A stretch of DNA of 64,000 nt from a virus. Lineage: Duplodnaviria > Heunggongvirae > Uroviricota > Caudoviricetes. How positions within the stretch are numbered: the first letter of the stretch is position 1; every line of letters begins with the position of its first letter. Of this stretch, positions 6,321 to 22,935 are shown piece by piece. The position numbers and the translations under genes were made by a program. Location: positions 1 through 64,000 of IMG/VR virus record IMGVR_UViG_2778261179_000006; one strand, 5' to 3'. The notes below the pieces were generated by a model that did not search any database, was not told where the DNA came from, and saw only the letters and a program-made list of their open reading frames with translations.

Positions 6321-6337
6321 AAATTAATTAGAGCAAT
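6321..6337 (-). promoter_or_regulatory. C1 repressor operator-like site upstream of ssb
   Basis: AAATTAATTAGAGCAAT, one mismatch to reverse complement of ATTGCTCTAATAAATTT. Confidence 0.6.
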
Positions 6338-16100: not shown

Positions 16101-16885
16101 TCAAGCAGGCAATGGACGCAGCAAGCGCGCGCATCGCAGCAGAACGGGAAGCCAATCTGAATCATGCAGTCGCCGCACTGACTCAATCGTGGGTAACAGC
16201 AATCAGGGAGGCCGCCACCACAGGGAAAATCACACCTGCAATTGCGGATGTCGTAAACGACGGCTCTAAATTTATGGATGCCTATCAAATGGATGCGGTG
16301 CAGTTGCCATCAGCCTATGGCCAACTCAGCTATCGCATGACCTACAACCTGGTATCAATGTTTTCCGACCTTGCCATCCTTGGGCTGGTGGATCTTAACG
16401 AGGTTACGCCGGAATTGCTCAGCATGCGCAAGAATCATGTGGAGATATTGCAGAGAATTAACACGGTTCTTGCCGGGCGCACCGATGAAGAGAAACAGGC
16501 CGACGCTGATCGGATAAACCTGGCCCTTGGCAACATCACGGAGGAAGAAATTGCCGCCAGAAACGAGAAACAAGAAGAGTTATCATCAATACAGGGTGAT
16601 GCCACCAGCATAGCTCAGTCTCTTGGTCTGAATTATCGCGTATCCACCGCCGACCTGAAGATGATGTACGCACCGAAATTCGCCGCTGGCGAGGTATTTG
16701 GGCTTCAGGAAGCCTCAGGCATGAAAGGCGTTCTTTTCCGTGCGAAAGACGCAATCAAGGCGAAATTCGGCGCTCGCTGGCTGCCAGCGAAGGCGAAGAA
16801 CAGCGATTTCCCGGGTAACTGGTGGATTATCGAGACAAAACACAACGTGGCGGACGTTCTGGCCGTCATCCAACAATACGCATAA
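10118..16885 (+). CDS. darB: DarB-like antirestriction protein: N6-adenine methyltransferase + SF2 helicase fusion
   Basis: 2255 aa; NVPFGG methyltransferase motif near N-terminus; helicase Walker A GFGTGLGKTT, DEGH box IADEGHNY, motif VI QRNGRGARVGS; size matches P1 DarB from memory. Confidence 0.8.
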   Translation: MNKLSMGVFRCSSVSEILKYIRAITSHRAPIKYGVEKVEGKSYDRLRREANQKAIDLLNSLVDGATLTDEQRQILAGYTGEGGIGGSVSEYYTPKPIAEGVWEIMKLYGADVGNTLEPSAGTGVFNETKPVGTVMTATEISSVSGRINQLLHPEDSVQISPFEQLAVSTPNDSFDHVVGNVPFGGRDNTRNIDKPYAEETDMGSYFMLRMLDKIKPGGFMCVIVPPSIVSGSNMKRLRLRLSRKAEFLGAHRLPTGTFDANGTSTVVDVVLMRKHPAEMAEKIPLVDESTLESANVLWPTFISGKWFEKDGRRFVHGTQEKGFQGRIEVRADGQIDNQALKAKLIHRFESRIDWSLLDMAEPSPTADVVGEGEMRLINGVWQKYAGGRWIEADAGKELKIDVASYGADSWEALQRNLTTTEGRLGMTFTQMANVRDKYTTSISDDMVQLVDWINSQPEKYRERLYRGAMIGRMLIEYQDMKAAGHSAEQIEQQRLSLVSRLQAEIDRFGNPGRGPIAKLSGSGARAWFAFRGAIKLDGTISDELTGKLVTHDSSASYDSTSYQDTLRYLYSDLTRDPIQLDDFRLAFTGELPASDDELLNLLASIPGIAVSPYGGIVPFARATSGDINEIVAPKQEFLATLPDGPVKNNVLNQLAAIEEKRIKTPAENIRFKLNSRWFDRSVILEFLQENGYPDLRYVQSVQLEGDEMVSDTYHGGDGLFVGHRYGVVQRKDKETGEIRYEWDRKSGENATGFPAQLEKYLNGARIGGKDSATANGYREQMALLEDQFNKWIKTHDRYDELVAKYNDVFNSNIPYEHSGDPLGLKGLSGKRQPFDYQNSEVRRLSEDGRGILGFGTGLGKTTTALALEAFNYENGRSTRTAYVVPKSVLENWYYEAKEFLSEEAFSNYLFVGLDVLMDGDQIRQVPVLDENGKPVLGTDGTPVMRDALKLADEATITARMNAIPHSNYRAVVFTKEQYARIPLRDDTVDEHAQDMLYDFVAAGRVASAMDSDSHRKEAARRRVLSEYSDTGTEKAEKYPYFEDMGFDSVIADEGHNYRNSYKNGREASQLAYLPTSAVAQSARDMAIKNAYLMKKNGGRGPVLLTATPVVNTPIDAYNMLSHVLPKEYWQNMGIYGPDDFVKFFGKTRLETVQKISGEVEEKMALVGFENLDALRGIFHRWVTLKTAEDVKDTVEIPELDEHQQDAPLTEEQLAAYEELRQQAEAAAKANNGVTTSVNEDGVIEHEKARPIFSIIRDMDRVCTDMDLYYRRITYRFLPEYADAVQQLADSLPKQATSEDDDSDDSITQQSQYSLIDKGEFIQLQVPEAFEQEVNKRLARFGIDEQTVTHPVTPKYAKLIATLKEFFPEGKQIIFTDEKTQHQKLKRIICNALNLEPSKVGILNAQTVAEAGKTGKKLKAVKPPKELPDEPTDAQIAKYNEQMALYDAYIAQQNEMSLGGLEKIAADFQEGRTPIIICNKKAEVGINLHRGTTDIHHLTLPWTPASIAQRNGRGARVGSNRASVRVHYYCGKGSFDEYRLKTLKRKAGWISDILRSDKSEMENADANDMIEMQMYTAKDDGERLAMMQVQMDKAKAAKRARQKEQATIDLQNYIKAQHAAGEDVEVLTAELERSKAELEKTTAEVAKFKQAAMAKAADNADWKARWGSVHHTDRMLLAQYRASLKSAIQRKANISQAISRYEKLLNRTQKAATDIKRLRPLVEDAINKGILDIDPDMVNHASEFLVIGDRSWRVGQYYDCAGDIVRIKSLDFDSQRADVEIIFTFKGTKSGNWDVKTLDKQVDVTPDEDAVMQKISGGVSIAGINDIISCDDFYRFQQRGMIKITDSYGVQTTESGYSIDLVGTYTDPLKHAVYPDRRDGALKSSIAKWVLGMMSEGNNRQIRSAETFLVELFGSNYGDVIASYGDTLSPEAIQEKIADAIAKMPEKTSQGATRNGDSELEVTNAIFGTHEFRASDYEITTAQFGTIGIYSNKAEIKQAMDAASARIAAEREANLNHAVAALTQSWVTAIREAATTGKITPAIADVVNDGSKFMDAYQMDAVQLPSAYGQLSYRMTYNLVSMFSDLAILGLVDLNEVTPELLSMRKNHVEILQRINTVLAGRTDEEKQADADRINLALGNITEEEIAARNEKQEELSSIQGDATSIAQSLGLNYRVSTADLKMMYAPKFAAGEVFGLQEASGMKGVLFRAKDAIKAKFGARWLPAKAKNSDFPGNWWIIETKHNVADVLAVIQQYA

Positions 16886-16918
16886 CAGGAGCGCCCGGTT
16901 CGCCGGGCGTCGCATAAT

Positions 16919-17359
16919 ATGGCCACACTATCTGATACAATAAAACCGAATAAAACATATCTTGAGGCGGTACTCCGTACAGCGTTGTTAGGAAAGACAG
17001 AAGACGAATACGTTGATTTCTTCCTGTCAGGGCTACGCGGGCGATTACTGAAAAATCCCCGCCTGTACCGCAGCTATGGTCCATACTGGCCGGAAATTAA
17101 AAAATTATTACTGGAGCGCGGTTATGGTAATTTCGGTCGTCTCGTTGACCGTGACGTTCGCAAAATTTACCGTTATGACCGCCCGGCTCTAACACTCATA
17201 GCCGCGACGCTCTACAGCCAGGAGCGTTTTGATAATGGTCAGATATACTCAGCCTGGCATTTACTGCCAGTGTCTGAAGAAGTTGACGACCAGGACTATG
17301 AATTTGAGTCTTACGATTTGGAAGTTGAAGCCTTGGCACAGGCTGGAGAGAAAACTTGA
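16919..17359 (+). CDS. ulx: hypothetical protein (ulx-like, upstream of lxc)
   Basis: 146-aa ORF right after darB, overlapping the start of the 82-aa ORF; name from synteny only. Confidence 0.4.
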   Translation: MATLSDTIKPNKTYLEAVLRTALLGKTEDEYVDFFLSGLRGRLLKNPRLYRSYGPYWPEIKKLLLERGYGNFGRLVDRDVRKIYRYDRPALTLIAATLYSQERFDNGQIYSAWHLLPVSEEVDDQDYEFESYDLEVEALAQAGEKT

Positions 17360-17604
17360 AAAAGCGATACTACACAGTAAAGCATGGGACGCTACGAGCA
17401 TTACAAGAGTTTGCTGATAAGCATAACGTTGAAGTGCGCAGGGAAGGGGGAAGTAAAGCTCTGCGCATGTACCGCCCGGACGGGAAATGGCGTACGGTCG
17501 TCGATTTCAAAACTAACAGCGTTCCCCAGGGCGTCCGCGACCGGGCATTCGAAGAATGGGAGCAAATCATCATAGATAATGCATTGCTCCTGAATGCTGA
17601 TTAA
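17356..17604 (+). CDS. lxc: Lxc/Bof-like C1 co-repressor
   Basis: 82-aa basic protein at the position and size remembered for P1 lxc (bof). Confidence 0.45.
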   Translation: MKKRYYTVKHGTLRALQEFADKHNVEVRREGGSKALRMYRPDGKWRTVVDFKTNSVPQGVRDRAFEEWEQIIIDNALLLNAD

Positions 17605-17610
17605 GTTTGT

Positions 17611-17640
17611 CTAGCCCGGTTAATACCGGGCTGGTTTAGA
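17611..17640. terminator. stem-loop between convergent lxc and the accessory cassette
   Basis: AGCCCGGT-TAAT-ACCGGGCT hairpin; weak U-tract on either side. Confidence 0.4.
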
Positions 17641-17662
17641 CATCTTAAGTGGGTGTTAATTT

Positions 17663-18172
17663 TTAATTATGGTTAATCATATCTAACAGTATTTTTAGCT
17701 TCCTGCATGTGTTATCAATATCTTTACATAATATGACATCAAGGATGTTTGGTAGTCCTAATACCATATGAGAAATGAAACCCTCGCCAACTTGTAGATT
17801 ATGGGTAGTCTCATCTGGATTCACGTATTCAATGGTTTTAGTTTTATTTATCCCATAATCTTTATAACAGATGATTACAGGAATGTTCTTCTGTTCAGCA
17901 ATCTGCAACTCTATTCCTAGCCCTGTTGATGGAAAACTACATTCTGCAATTATTACATCAGATTTCTCAACCATATCTCTGTCCCAAATGTAACAAAGTT
18001 TAGATTTGTTACTTTCAGGGCGCTTTGATAATTCTGGGTCACTATTTATCAAAGCATATTTTACGTTGTTATTTTGAGATAGACCTTTTGCAAGGCTGTG
18101 AATCCAATTACTGTACTCATGGAAAATTTCCCTTGGAACATGAGTTAAAGCGCATGCGATATATATATTCAT
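17663..18172 (-). CDS. nucleoside 2-deoxyribosyltransferase-fold protein (NDT/Rcl-like), candidate effector of accessory cassette
   Basis: 169 aa; MNIYIACAL N-terminal strand and DVIIAECSFPSTGLGIELQIAEQ resemble the NDT catalytic-Glu motif; strongly AT-rich; ATG overlaps stop of upstream gene (TAATG). Confidence 0.6.
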   Translation of the reverse strand: MNIYIACALTHVPREIFHEYSNWIHSLAKGLSQNNNVKYALINSDPELSKRPESNKSKLCYIWDRDMVEKSDVIIAECSFPSTGLGIELQIAEQKNIPVIICYKDYGINKTKTIEYVNPDETTHNLQVGEGFISHMVLGLPNILDVILCKDIDNTCRKLKILLDMINHN

Positions 18173-19212
18173 TAAGAAGCAGACCTTACGTTTGGGATAA
18201 GAAATTGGTGTCCAGTAATTTCAGATGAAATTGCATCTATAAACTGTGACGGAGATTGTTGAATAAATTCAGCAATAATCCAGTTTTCTTTTTCATTTAG
18301 TAACTGTCTTAGCTTAAGTGGGTCATACCGACATAGCTCACTTAATCGATGCATAGCTGCTAGGGTTATAACCAATGGCGATATTGAAACAGAAGTATGC
18401 TCAGATTGATTGTTTTTACGTTTGAGATACCAAAGAGTCTCTGCGCCATTGATATAGTAAAGATTTCTTCTTATTTTTTGATGAAATTCAGTTAATTGCG
18501 GCATGTTGGACGATTGATTTTCATTATAATCAAGTAATGACTCTACTGATTTTATTTTGTACTTTTCTCTTTCAAACAATTCGAACGCTGGCGGTAGAAT
18601 GTCGAAAACTGTGTCGAACCGAAAATCCTTGGATAAAATCGCAGTGAAAAACAGGCTATTGTCTGACTCATTCAGAACGAACTCAGCATCGATCAGTGGA
18701 ATAAATATATCATCAGTTACATCATAAGTAAGGCAATATGTACGATGAATATATGGCAATCCAGAAAAAAGGTTTTTTATATTGTACACCCCCTCATGAG
18801 AGGTGCCGTCAATATATTTTGAAAAAGACGGAAGTATACCCTCATTTTTTATTTTTACTTTTATATCAGATAAGTTATCAATTTGGGCTGCATTTTCACC
18901 CCTAGCAACACCATGATGCTGTTTGAAGTTTATATTGCGAGATGAAAGTAACGCCTTTACTGCATTCATGAATGAATAATAGTGCAAAAGTGGGGCTGAT
19001 TGGTTGGGTAAACCATTGGCCGCCTGATTAAATACTTTTGCTTGCTCCCAATAAAAAAGAGCCTCATCTTTTTCGTTTCGCTTTAACCAGAGTTCGACAA
19101 AATCCCAATGACTGTATGTAAGTACATTCCTTGCGGTTAGGTCAGGGTTTAATGATGCTTTATGAGGCTTCATGACCTTGTTCCTAATTTTCAGCGGCTT
19201 AATATTCATCAT
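18172..19212 (-). CDS. hypothetical protein, first gene of accessory cassette
   Basis: 346-aa ORF, AT-rich, GGAGG 9 nt upstream of ATG; no motif recognised by eye. Confidence 0.55.
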   Translation of the reverse strand: MMNIKPLKIRNKVMKPHKASLNPDLTARNVLTYSHWDFVELWLKRNEKDEALFYWEQAKVFNQAANGLPNQSAPLLHYYSFMNAVKALLSSRNINFKQHHGVARGENAAQIDNLSDIKVKIKNEGILPSFSKYIDGTSHEGVYNIKNLFSGLPYIHRTYCLTYDVTDDIFIPLIDAEFVLNESDNSLFFTAILSKDFRFDTVFDILPPAFELFEREKYKIKSVESLLDYNENQSSNMPQLTEFHQKIRRNLYYINGAETLWYLKRKNNQSEHTSVSISPLVITLAAMHRLSELCRYDPLKLRQLLNEKENWIIAEFIQQSPSQFIDAISSEITGHQFLIPNVRSAS

Positions 19213-19241
19213 TGTAATAATCCTCCACCCAAAGTTACTAG

Positions 19242-19270
19242 ATTGTAAAATATATATTTTTGTTCCACAA
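19242..19270 (-). promoter_or_regulatory. candidate sigma70 promoter of accessory cassette
   Basis: Minus strand TTGTGG (19270-19265), 17-nt spacer, TACAAT (19247-19242); no C1 operator motif nearby. Confidence 0.35.
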
Positions 19271-19302
19271 CAAAAATCTCTATTGGCTACTGACGTAATT
19301 AA

Positions 19303-19944
19303 TTATAAATAGTTTTCTTTGCCGGTAAGTAAGCCTTGAGGAACTCGCTTGTCGGCTAGACATTGGGTTCCGCGAATTATGTTAATCAGAGGGCTTAGTA
19401 ACGATGTTTCCTGGCGGGCCTCAACTTCTCCAGCCATTGCCCTGATGTAGTCGGCGCTTGCAACGTTGTTATATTCCGTTGCGAAGCAGCATAACAACGA
19501 CAGAACGTGCTCTGTCGTTATTTCGCTCCAGTTGATGTTGAAAAATTCATCGCCTTTTTTGTCGTGTTCGGAATCGAAGATGCTTTGGTGGAGGATGTAT
19601 TTGCCGGATTCTTTGCGCGGTAACTTGATCGCTTTCTGGCGTTCCAGCTCCTTGTAAATCTGCATTGCTTCAATTAGTACCGGCCTGCCGTTCATGAAGG
19701 GATCGCGCAACCTTACACGCTGGCCAACTCGACCCGTAATAAAGCTGTTTTCCTCTTCCACCAGCACGATAAAACCCTTTTCCTCTTTTTCTCGCAATTC
19801 GCGCAGCAGCTGGAGTTCCATATCGCGGCGGCGTTCAGGGTAGCTGGTCCGCTCAGCCATTATCAACTCGTTGTTGATCCATGCAGCAGTCATTGACGCC
19901 GGTTTGCCGACGCTCATCGAAACAACGCATATTTTCTTATCCAT
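19303..19944 (-). CDS. mat: particle maturation protein-like
   Basis: Gene between ref and the cassette, backbone-like GC; internal ATG at 19944 preferred over ORF-track start at 19971; name from P1 synteny. Confidence 0.45.
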   Translation of the reverse strand: MDKKICVVSMSVGKPASMTAAWINNELIMAERTSYPERRRDMELQLLRELREKEEKGFIVLVEEENSFITGRVGQRVRLRDPFMNGRPVLIEAMQIYKELERQKAIKLPRKESGKYILHQSIFDSEHDKKGDEFFNINWSEITTEHVLSLLCCFATEYNNVASADYIRAMAGEVEARQETSLLSPLINIIRGTQCLADKRVPQGLLTGKENYL

Positions 19945-20132
19945 AGCGCCCCTACAAAAAAGAAAAGCCACCAGCGGCGGCTTAGCAATACAACTGAAGG
20001 TAGCGCCCGGTACTCAGACTGTGCCGTCCATGGAATATTTGAAAAGGGATCCATCCGTACCGGGCGTGTGATGATTCTGACTCAAGTCACTTGTCAGTTG
20101 TCAATCATTTATCATTAAAAATAATATATTTA

Positions 20133-20693
20133 TTAGTGCATGATGTTTGCCATCTCATAGGCGTCAGCCAGTAACTCCATCTCTGACTTGTTCAGCAGGG
20201 TGAATTCTTTCTTGCCTCCAACCACACCATCGGCATGAACAGGGACCAGCCAGGGGTATTTTGCTCTTACTTCAGCCGGTGCTGCATGCTGGTGGTGCCA
20301 TCTACAAAGTGGCAATTGCTTTTTGTGACAACCAGGCGCGGTACGACCGGAAATATGGTGCAGAGACACCTCTTCAGATATTACTCCATGCATATAGCAC
20401 GCAATGCAGGGGAGAGCGCCAAGAGCATTGGCTATGTGCCGTTCCTCTGCCGTCGGTGTTCGTCCCTTCAAGCCACGAGATTTTATTTTTACCGCACTTT
20501 TCCGCGTTTTGCTGGCTGGTGGGCACTCTTTCTGTTTAGCGATACGGCGGTCGATAGAATCCCGCATTTTCTGATATTGCGATTCTCGCCAGGCGGGGTC
20601 AGCCAACTTTTCCCGTTGCCGAGCGATCGCTCGTTCTCTGGCTGCCTTCTGCCACTCGCGGCGCTGTTCAAGTTTTTGTTCGATTGTTTTCAT
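20133..20693 (-). CDS. ref: Ref recombination enhancement function (HNH endonuclease)
   Basis: 186 aa from internal ATG at 20693 (MKTIEQK...); Cys/His-rich HNH-type region CIACYMHG...HHISGR...CRWHHQH. Confidence 0.85.
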   Translation of the reverse strand: MKTIEQKLEQRREWQKAARERAIARQREKLADPAWRESQYQKMRDSIDRRIAKQKECPPASKTRKSAVKIKSRGLKGRTPTAEERHIANALGALPCIACYMHGVISEEVSLHHISGRTAPGCHKKQLPLCRWHHQHAAPAEVRAKYPWLVPVHADGVVGGKKEFTLLNKSEMELLADAYEMANIMH

Positions 20694-22906: not shown

Positions 22907-22935
22907 TTGACAATTGCTCTAATAAATTATAGTTT
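22907..22935 (+). promoter_or_regulatory. C1-repressible promoter toward coi-c1 (operator within spacer)
   Basis: TTGACA, then ATTGCTCTAATAAATTA (16/17 to operator consensus) as spacer, then TAGTTT. Confidence 0.6.

Follow-up and report, generated by a model that had tools for sequence, protein, structure and literature searches.

A two-gene cassette coupling a YaaC-family protein to an N-glycosidase-like protein at the lxc-mat junction of a P1-like phage-plasmid: a candidate anti-phage module

What does a P1-like phage-plasmid carry where P1 itself has its restriction-modification (R-M) genes? The window, by which we mean the whole stretch of 64,000 nucleotides analysed here (positions 1 to 64,000 of IMG/VR record IMGVR_UViG_2778261179_000006, Caudoviricetes), holds at 17605-19302 a variable cassette of 1.7 kb between the backbone genes lxc and mat of such an element, and only two open reading frames (ORFs) lie within it. 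Both are on the minus strand, a gene for a 346-residue protein (19212..18172) being followed by one for a 169-residue protein (18172..17663). An original prediction, made from the DNA sequence, proposed them as a candidate undescribed defence module. On balance, we favour reading the cassette as a self-contained, horizontally mobile two-gene module acting against phages (or other mobile elements), in which an N-glycosidase effector would be controlled by a protein of the YaaC family. The genes concerned, and those that bound them, are as follows.

18172..19212, minus strand: gene 1, YaaC-family protein, 346 amino acids
17663..18172, minus strand: gene 2, N-glycosidase-like protein with the fold of nucleoside 2-deoxyribosyltransferases (NDTs), DNPH1 and MilB, 169 amino acids
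17356..17604, plus strand: lxc, P1 backbone, left boundary of the slot; 97-98% identity to P1 and RCS47, with homology ending at 17604
19303..19971, minus strand: mat, P1 backbone, right boundary of the slot, with a mosaic 3' end

The limits of the cassette were set by pairwise BLAST comparison with P1, RCS47, SJ46, JL22 and Ro157c2YLVW, since backbone homology stops at the lxc stop codon (17604) and at the mat stop codon (19303). The flanking genes (darB, ulx and lxc to the left; mat, ref, cra/c8 and cre to the right) are 93-98% identical to those of P1-family phages, as had been anticipated, and alignment of the locus places res, mod (EcoP1I) and IS5 of P1 in the same slot, in agreement with the proposed replacement of res-mod. 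The GC fraction is 0.34-0.38 over 17600-19400 compared with about 0.50 in the flanks, the AT-rich, foreign composition remarked on in the original prediction, and the two genes, called translationally coupled there, overlap by one base at 18172, shared by the stop of gene 1 and the start of gene 2 (TAATG). Transposon-type flanking repeats were not found around the cassette, nor did Rfam yield any match, retron-like or other, in 16800-20200. Depending on the P1 relative compared, homology at the 3' end of mat (19303-19435) breaks off at 19303, 19363 or 19435, and this end of the gene is therefore mosaic; from such breakpoints, slot cargo is probably swapped by recombination at two places, inside mat and at the stop of lxc.

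On profile and model evidence alike, the product of gene 2 is a true NDT/DNPH1/MilB-fold protein, so that the fold originally assigned to it stands. Its match to PF05014 (Nuc_deoxyrib_tr) spans residues 4-106 with E=1.9e-4, a score that does not reach the Pfam gathering threshold (22.0 bits against 28.8; for PF15891, 12.5 against 30), and a precomputed PF05014 hit is present in many of its homologues. A profile built from 42 family members matches Rcl/DNPH1 in the PDB (E=3.6e-5). The AlphaFold2 model, with a predicted local distance difference test score (pLDDT) of 96, has the flavodoxin-like alpha/beta fold of the NDT class; Foldseek matches it to DNPH1, to the E. faecalis NDT-like protein 7m5h and to BcmB, the best structural match being MilB, a hydroxymethylcytidine monophosphate (hmCMP) hydrolase. 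Profile alignment lays E88 on the Glu of the SLGVGYE segment of Rcl and D64 on the Asp 24 residues upstream, which we take to be the catalytic residues of Rcl. Y4, D64 and E88, the last within PSTGLGIELQ, are invariant in the 42 sequences, giving the Glu nucleophile in a G-x-E segment, the Asp and the N-terminal Tyr of the class; the IYIA and GIELQ motifs, already likened to those of NDT and Rcl enzymes, sit at the invariant catalytic Tyr and Glu. Cleavage or transfer of an N-glycosidic bond is accordingly the activity we would predict from sequence and model.

The family is a tight one, about 170 residues long and 47-70% identical across phyla, with features of its own in a T10-H11-V-P-R14 loop and a C-terminal beta-hairpin (Y116, N118-P-D120, H124, Q127). 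These two elements set it apart from DNPH1/Rcl, MilB, BcmB and the NDTs, to which the 169-residue protein shows 13-20% identity and scores below the Pfam gathering cutoff, as do its obligate pairing with YaaC and its occurrence in defence-island and mobile-element rather than biosynthetic or housekeeping contexts. Compared with the TIR/SIR2 NADase effectors (Thoeris, TIR-STING, TIR-SAVED), it is clearly nearer to the NDT/MilB class than to TIR; neither protein of the cassette has a TIR or SIR2 hit in Pfam or PADLOC, and NAD+ is a possible but unsupported substrate. More distant relatives of the N-glycosidase domain (proteins P0321-P0343, P0348, P0355, P0361 and P0392) share GGITNVP, CY-x-x-DQ and VPSTGTGQELERA motifs; their C termini are extended by tails of 100-350 residues, charged and coiled-coil-like in appearance, and they have no other Pfam hit and no similarity to YaaC. 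Fusions of YaaC to NDT were sought, and the longer NDT-like relatives proved to end in these coiled-coil-like tails and not in YaaC.

In the 346-residue partner no nameable motif had originally been recognised; it is, however, a member of the YaaC family (PF14175), matched at E=1.4e-45 and 156.5 bits against a cutoff of 27 and over its full length (residues 34-332 on positions 18-307 of the 307 in the profile), and RefSeq names it 'YaaC family protein'. Comparison of folds, using a structure model with a pLDDT of 92, finds in it the up-down helical bundle of HEPN type. Only around 115 residues align in this comparison, and the predicted helices of the bundle fall at about 35-91 and 279-333 with an alpha/beta domain inserted at about 100-270, which together suggest a HEPN bundle split by an alpha/beta insert. 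A YaaC-family profile found no match among PDB sequences even at E<=10, the HEPN resemblance being seen by fold comparison alone. Among 40-62 aligned YaaC sequences there is no conserved Rx4-6H motif, and the sole string of this type in the 346-residue protein, R265-H272, falls in a variable loop. Conserved throughout the family, irrespective of whether the N-glycosidase gene is present, are H100, H156, R157, R248, K264, M287-H288-R289-L-S-E292, R295, Y296 and E315; of the polar residues, H288-R289...R295-Y296 lie in the preceding helix, and H100, H156, R157 and R248 in the insert. A further set (T158, R277, E327, Q336, N341 and R343) is specific to the clade coupled to the N-glycosidase.

YaaC therefore differs from the HEPN proteins of abortive-infection and toxin systems (AbiA/D/F/J/V-type, HEPN-MNT, PrrC-like R-M-embedded nucleases) in having no conserved Rx4-6H and in the splitting of its bundle by an insert of about 170 residues with conserved His and Arg; no PADLOC HEPN model matches it. 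A HEPN-MNT toxin-antitoxin was considered and ruled out, the partner having the NDT fold and not that of a nucleotidyltransferase. In the HEPN survey of Anantharaman et al., NDT domains are mentioned only as fusions to AbiJ-NTD1, not with YaaC.

How constant is the association of the two genes? The YaaC profile, run against a single genome for each GTDB species, picked out 74 loci in Proteobacteria, Myxococcota, Campylobacterota, Bacteroidota, Firmicutes, Cyanobacteria, Planctomycetota, Spirochaetota, Nitrospirota, Armatimonadota and others. The full-length YaaC genes with scores of at least 436 bits, 33 in number, all have an N-glycosidase gene directly downstream, overlapping or a few bases apart, and every YaaC gene at or below 405 bits lacks one. 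Viewed from the N-glycosidase side the association is without exception: YaaC lies directly upstream of each of the 46 homologues checked, from many bacterial phyla, among them those of 8 of 8 homologue neighbourhoods and 5 of 5 viral contigs. The N-glycosidase and YaaC thus form a unit that is obligate for the N-glycosidase, YaaC being found also alone. A conserved third gene beside the pair was sought and not found. The pair itself is present in Alpha-, Beta- and Gammaproteobacteria, Myxococcota, Campylobacterota, Bacteroidota, Planctomycetota, Spirochaetota and Armatimonadota. Between two cassette alleles that are 95.9% identical, the ratio of nonsynonymous to synonymous polymorphism (pN/pS) is 0.07 for the N-glycosidase and 0.23 for YaaC, so that both genes are under purifying selection, the former more tightly. 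The cassette occurs in 106 of 5,426 complete E. coli genomes (about 2%), with 109 of the 112 places on plasmids. In two plasmids, NZ_CP062902.1 and CP057689.1, the match covers no more than the initial 214 bp of the cassette, in the 3' part of the N-glycosidase gene, at 100% identity and at two places per record, which suggests disrupted or rearranged copies.

The solo YaaC genes bear on which of the two proteins is the effector. Near 33 solo loci (among L031-L083) the neighbours include type I methyltransferases (6), mad2 (6), type IIG R-M genes (5) and Drt1a (3); a conserved partner was sought, and the downstream ORFs proved mutually unrelated. In Aureitalea sp. a solo YaaC gene (L037:10004-11038) stands between hsdM and hsdS. 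YaaC alone may be a single-gene defence protein. The roles proposed above might instead be reversed. YaaC would be the effector, a non-canonical nuclease or phosphodiesterase of HEPN fold, able to act by itself in the solo clade, with the N-glycosidase as an accessory that might sense or process a phage nucleotide (hm-dCMP, hm-dUMP) or act on the products of YaaC. Such an arrangement would suit the occurrence of solo YaaC, with no conserved partner, in these defence contexts, the putative active-site residues common to both clades, the standing of HEPN domains as classic defence RNases, and a partner whose nearest structural match hydrolyses hmCMP. It is less easily reconciled with the want of a conserved Rx4-6H in YaaC, or with the N-glycosidase, whose full catalytic triad is retained and whose sequence is more conserved than that of YaaC, features that suit an effector working on an invariant metabolite better than they suit a sensor. 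We consider the reversal rather improbable, and nonetheless a serious rival.

The neighbourhoods of the pair point in the direction of defence. In Bradyrhizobium it adjoins an AAA_15/AAA_21 ATPase and a UvrD helicase (Gabija-like), in Chryseobacterium PycTM (a Pycsar-type effector gene) and a DUF2726 helicase, and on an E. coli chromosome BrxR, an integrase and a Dpd island; one pair is in a prophage immunity region with methyltransferases and HATPase_c_3, and one beside BrxL (BREX) and PLDc_2. In locus L027 it lies inside a type I R-M cluster: the gene directly downstream is hsdR-like, and upstream there are an hsdM-like gene and another ORF. Type I R-M genes adjoin the pair at L039, L043 and L045. 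Taking, at 34 pair loci, the two ORFs closest to the pair on either side, 123 ORFs in all, the commonest PADLOC families are mad2 of MADS (5), type I restriction endonuclease (4), type I methyltransferase (4) and PbeA (4), with HamB of Hachiman also present (2); the commonest Pfam families are ResIII (5), SWI2_SNF2 (4), HSDR_N (4) and N6_Mtase (3).

The slot itself offers a second line of evidence. PLSDB contains 703 plasmids that match the flanks, 77 of which carry the YaaC-NDT cassette, and in a spread sample of 60 of the 703 the slot holds RelA/SpoT, SIR2-family, PIN-domain, GNAT, DUF2971 or EAL genes, or is empty. It is empty in RCS47, with 39 bp between lxc and mat, and in SJ46 it holds a RelA/SpoT family gene. 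SJ46 encodes a fused CapRel that is a validated anti-phage toxin-antitoxin (PMC9712102), and the gene in the slot is taken to be this CapRel, an identity that we presume. The cassette therefore occupies a fixed site between backbone genes at which relatives hold other defence systems, validated ones included. EcoP1I res-mod, CapRel, and the SIR2-family and PIN cargo share its insertion point, each as a compact module, and the SJ46 CapRel also its orientation; their proteins and chemistry are unrelated to those of the cassette, which is a predicted system whereas those of P1 and SJ46 have been tested experimentally. Several of these alternative cargo genes (SIR2, PIN, GNAT, DUF2971, EAL; slot hits H107-H146) are uncharacterised and may be further defence candidates. 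The EAL-domain gene is joined by a transcriptional regulator in at least one record.

Might the pair instead be a selfish toxin-antitoxin or addiction module, stabilising the phage-plasmid by post-segregational killing and with no anti-phage role? Most homologues, however, are chromosomal, in R-M, BREX and prophage islands and not on plasmids, and the slots of sister plasmids hold R-M, the presumed CapRel and SIR2 and not maintenance genes. We judge pure addiction decidedly unlikely, with the proviso that toxin-antitoxin and defence functions are not mutually exclusive and can coexist.

Has the pair been described before? Full-text literature searches gave no paper linking YaaC to phage or to HEPN, none on PF14175 and none describing the YaaC-NDT pair; neither family is present in the supplements of a metagenomic-selection defence screen, and PHROGs and NCBIfam give no meaningful match for either protein. 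Table S10 of DefensePredictor lists a 346-residue E. coli 'YaaC family protein', WP_059338150.1, as a 'predicted novel defense gene' with log-odds of 11.0, among 1,041 clusters described as still to be validated; YaaC is absent from the DefensePredictor tables of tested transcription units. This is probably the protein of the window, since both are 346 residues long, against 350 for the other E. coli YaaC clade, the match being one of length and not of accession. The word 'undescribed' in the original prediction thus holds for the pair, as far as the literature found is concerned, and is qualified for YaaC by this probable earlier listing as a prediction.

Among known systems the nearest parallel is found in the NDT-like effectors of retrons (Retron-Eco1/Ec86, Ec73, Eco9, Sen2), which like the 169-residue protein are NDT-fold N-glycosidases with a catalytic Glu; that of Ec86, with catalytic E106, is reported to deplete adenine derivatives (bioRxiv 10.1101/2023.08.16.553469). 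In retrons the effector is toxic and is held by its partner until a phage trigger, whereas restraint in the YaaC pair is only proposed. The pair does not itself qualify as a retron: there is no reverse transcriptase in its Pfam-annotated neighbourhoods and no msr/msd non-coding RNA by Rfam in 16800-20200.

Some neighbours hint at nucleotide metabolism. A PF06189 5'-nucleotidase gene lies directly beside the pair in two unrelated loci (L094:5410-6882 and L079:8909-9835), co-directional with a 23-nt gap in one and divergent in the other, and may encode an optional third component acting on nucleotide monophosphates. Together with the deaminases and isochorismatase at L096 and the IMPDH gene within 6 kb at L005, and with the fact that DNPH1 and MilB are metabolic enzymes, it could be taken to suggest a nucleotide-sanitising or salvage module, or else a module beneficial to the phage or directed against defence, in which the hydrolase would remove non-canonical (deoxy)nucleoside monophosphates or an immune signalling nucleotide with YaaC as its helper; the P1 slot does adjoin the darB-ulx anti-restriction genes. 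A patchy distribution, a foreign composition and presence in just about 2% of complete E. coli genomes sit poorly with such a role, as do the mutual exclusion of the cassette and known defence cargo in the slot, the embedding of the pair in type I R-M operons and the high DefensePredictor score, if the length-based match is right. Chromosomal homologues in R-M and BREX contexts make an anti-defence role in particular unlikely. A metabolic role of this kind, like pure addiction, appears to us less likely than defence, and we give it little credence.

Returning to the defence module that we favour, its working can be sketched as follows. The cassette would probably be expressed in the lysogen from its own promoter. 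YaaC, as the ancestral component, would sense infection and regulate the system, and is possibly also a nuclease; made first, it would bind the N-glycosidase and keep it inactive. Phage infection would activate the 169-residue enzyme, which would then cut the N-glycosidic bond of a (deoxy)nucleotide by means of its Tyr4/Asp64/Glu88 triad. The expected outcome would be loss of a nucleotide pool required for phage DNA synthesis and a block to phage replication, possibly at a cost to host growth. The role of sensor or regulator is assigned to YaaC because the N-glycosidase never occurs alone, because its gene comes second and overlaps that of YaaC at the stop and start codons, because it is under tighter constraint than YaaC, and because the C-terminal N341 and R343 of YaaC are conserved only in the coupled clade. 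As for the substrate, the enzymes nearest in structure, MilB and DNPH1, use nucleoside 5'-monophosphates, hydroxymethylated pyrimidines among them, and these activities, along with the PF06189 5'-nucleotidase in two variants, point to the nucleotide-monophosphate pool as the target. In its most specific form the proposal is of a widespread immune system in which nucleotide monophosphates would be destroyed by a DNPH1/MilB-like enzyme, perhaps the hydroxymethylated pyrimidine nucleotides needed by T-even-type phages, under the control of a non-canonical HEPN-fold YaaC that in other lineages would be a stand-alone defence protein; so narrow a version we advance tentatively, and with more doubt than confidence.

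Two further features of the cassette concern its expression.

19213..19302, minus strand: cassette-specific upstream region with a putative sigma70 promoter and a GGAGG Shine-Dalgarno sequence, read from the sequence
17611..17640, no strand assigned: GC-rich hairpin with the core AGCCCGG-N6-CCGGGCT, lying where the 3' ends of lxc and of the cassette converge, from RNA folding

The strings and the spacing of the promoter put forward in the original prediction are present, with a -35 element TTGTGG (19270-19265), a 17-nt spacer and a -10 element TACAAT (19247-19242); its function remains putative. A consensus scan is silent on it because the -35 element matches at only 3 of 6 positions. The ribosome-binding site named there is also in place, GGAGG occurring at 19226-19222, 9 nt before the ATG at 19212. 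Equally, no P1 C1 operator was found in the cassette at up to 3 mismatches, as had been said. Elsewhere in the window there are 15 matches to the operator consensus at this stringency against 0.27 expected by chance (for example 54924-54940, 22913-22929 and 6321-6337), a number that fits an intact immunity network of P1 type in this element. The spacer and -35 element of the putative promoter are overlapped by an AT-rich inverted repeat at 19249-19284, with 16-nt arms of 88% complementarity and a gap of 4 nt, which could represent an operator or have arisen by chance in AT-rich DNA. The hairpin between lxc and the cassette has a folding energy of -21.2 kcal/mol (z=-5.7 relative to shuffled sequences) and lacks a T-run; a terminator scan did not call it, and on the folding prediction it is a probable bidirectional transcription stop.

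Several observations weigh against the defence reading and keep our preference for it a guarded one. Approximately one third of the pair neighbourhoods are of housekeeping character, among them those in Beijerinckia and at L096, and the figures for defence neighbours are raw counts with no background rate for comparison. The PADLOC check suggested along with the original prediction was run with PADLOC v2 and recognised neither protein, PADLOC-DB v2.0.0 having no model for either and yielding zero families at E<=1; the literature searched holds no experiment on the pair, only the machine-learning prediction of DefensePredictor Table S10. The fold of the N-glycosidase is too broad for a substrate to be deduced from it, encompassing nucleoside transferases, hydrolases of nucleoside and deoxynucleoside monophosphates and, more distantly, NADases. 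The same constellation of His, Arg, Glu and Lys residues is found in solo and coupled YaaC clades, and YaaC is therefore probably an enzyme itself and more than a regulator. Lastly, the promoter on which expression in the lysogen would depend is a weak match to the consensus. The candidate defence module of the original prediction nevertheless gains support from the cross-phylum pairing, from recurrence in defence islands and type I R-M loci and from the other cargo of the slot; it is from these that we infer its function and mechanism, including a physical complex, the assignment of sensor and effector, and the substrate.

Should this reading prove true, a compact two-gene system of 1.7 kb and broad distribution would enter the catalogue of bacterial defences. 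YaaC (PF14175), for which no paper describing a function was found, would become a defence family, one whose solo clade frequently lies within type I R-M loci. At the lxc-mat junction, P1-like phage-plasmids would have a defence hotspot that can be mined, with R-M, CapRel, SIR2, PIN and the YaaC-NDT pair among its contents. The TIR, SIR2 and retron effectors would be joined, among defence N-glycosidases, by a class whose nearest relatives are DNPH1 and MilB and whose target would be the nucleotide-monophosphate pool or modified phage nucleotides. On the most specific form of the proposal, bacterial immunity would acquire a new chemistry, the excision of bases from free nucleotides of the pool, and human DNPH1 would gain a prokaryotic immune relative. 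Present in about 2% of complete E. coli genomes, the cassette may for that reason affect phage therapy and P1-based tools.

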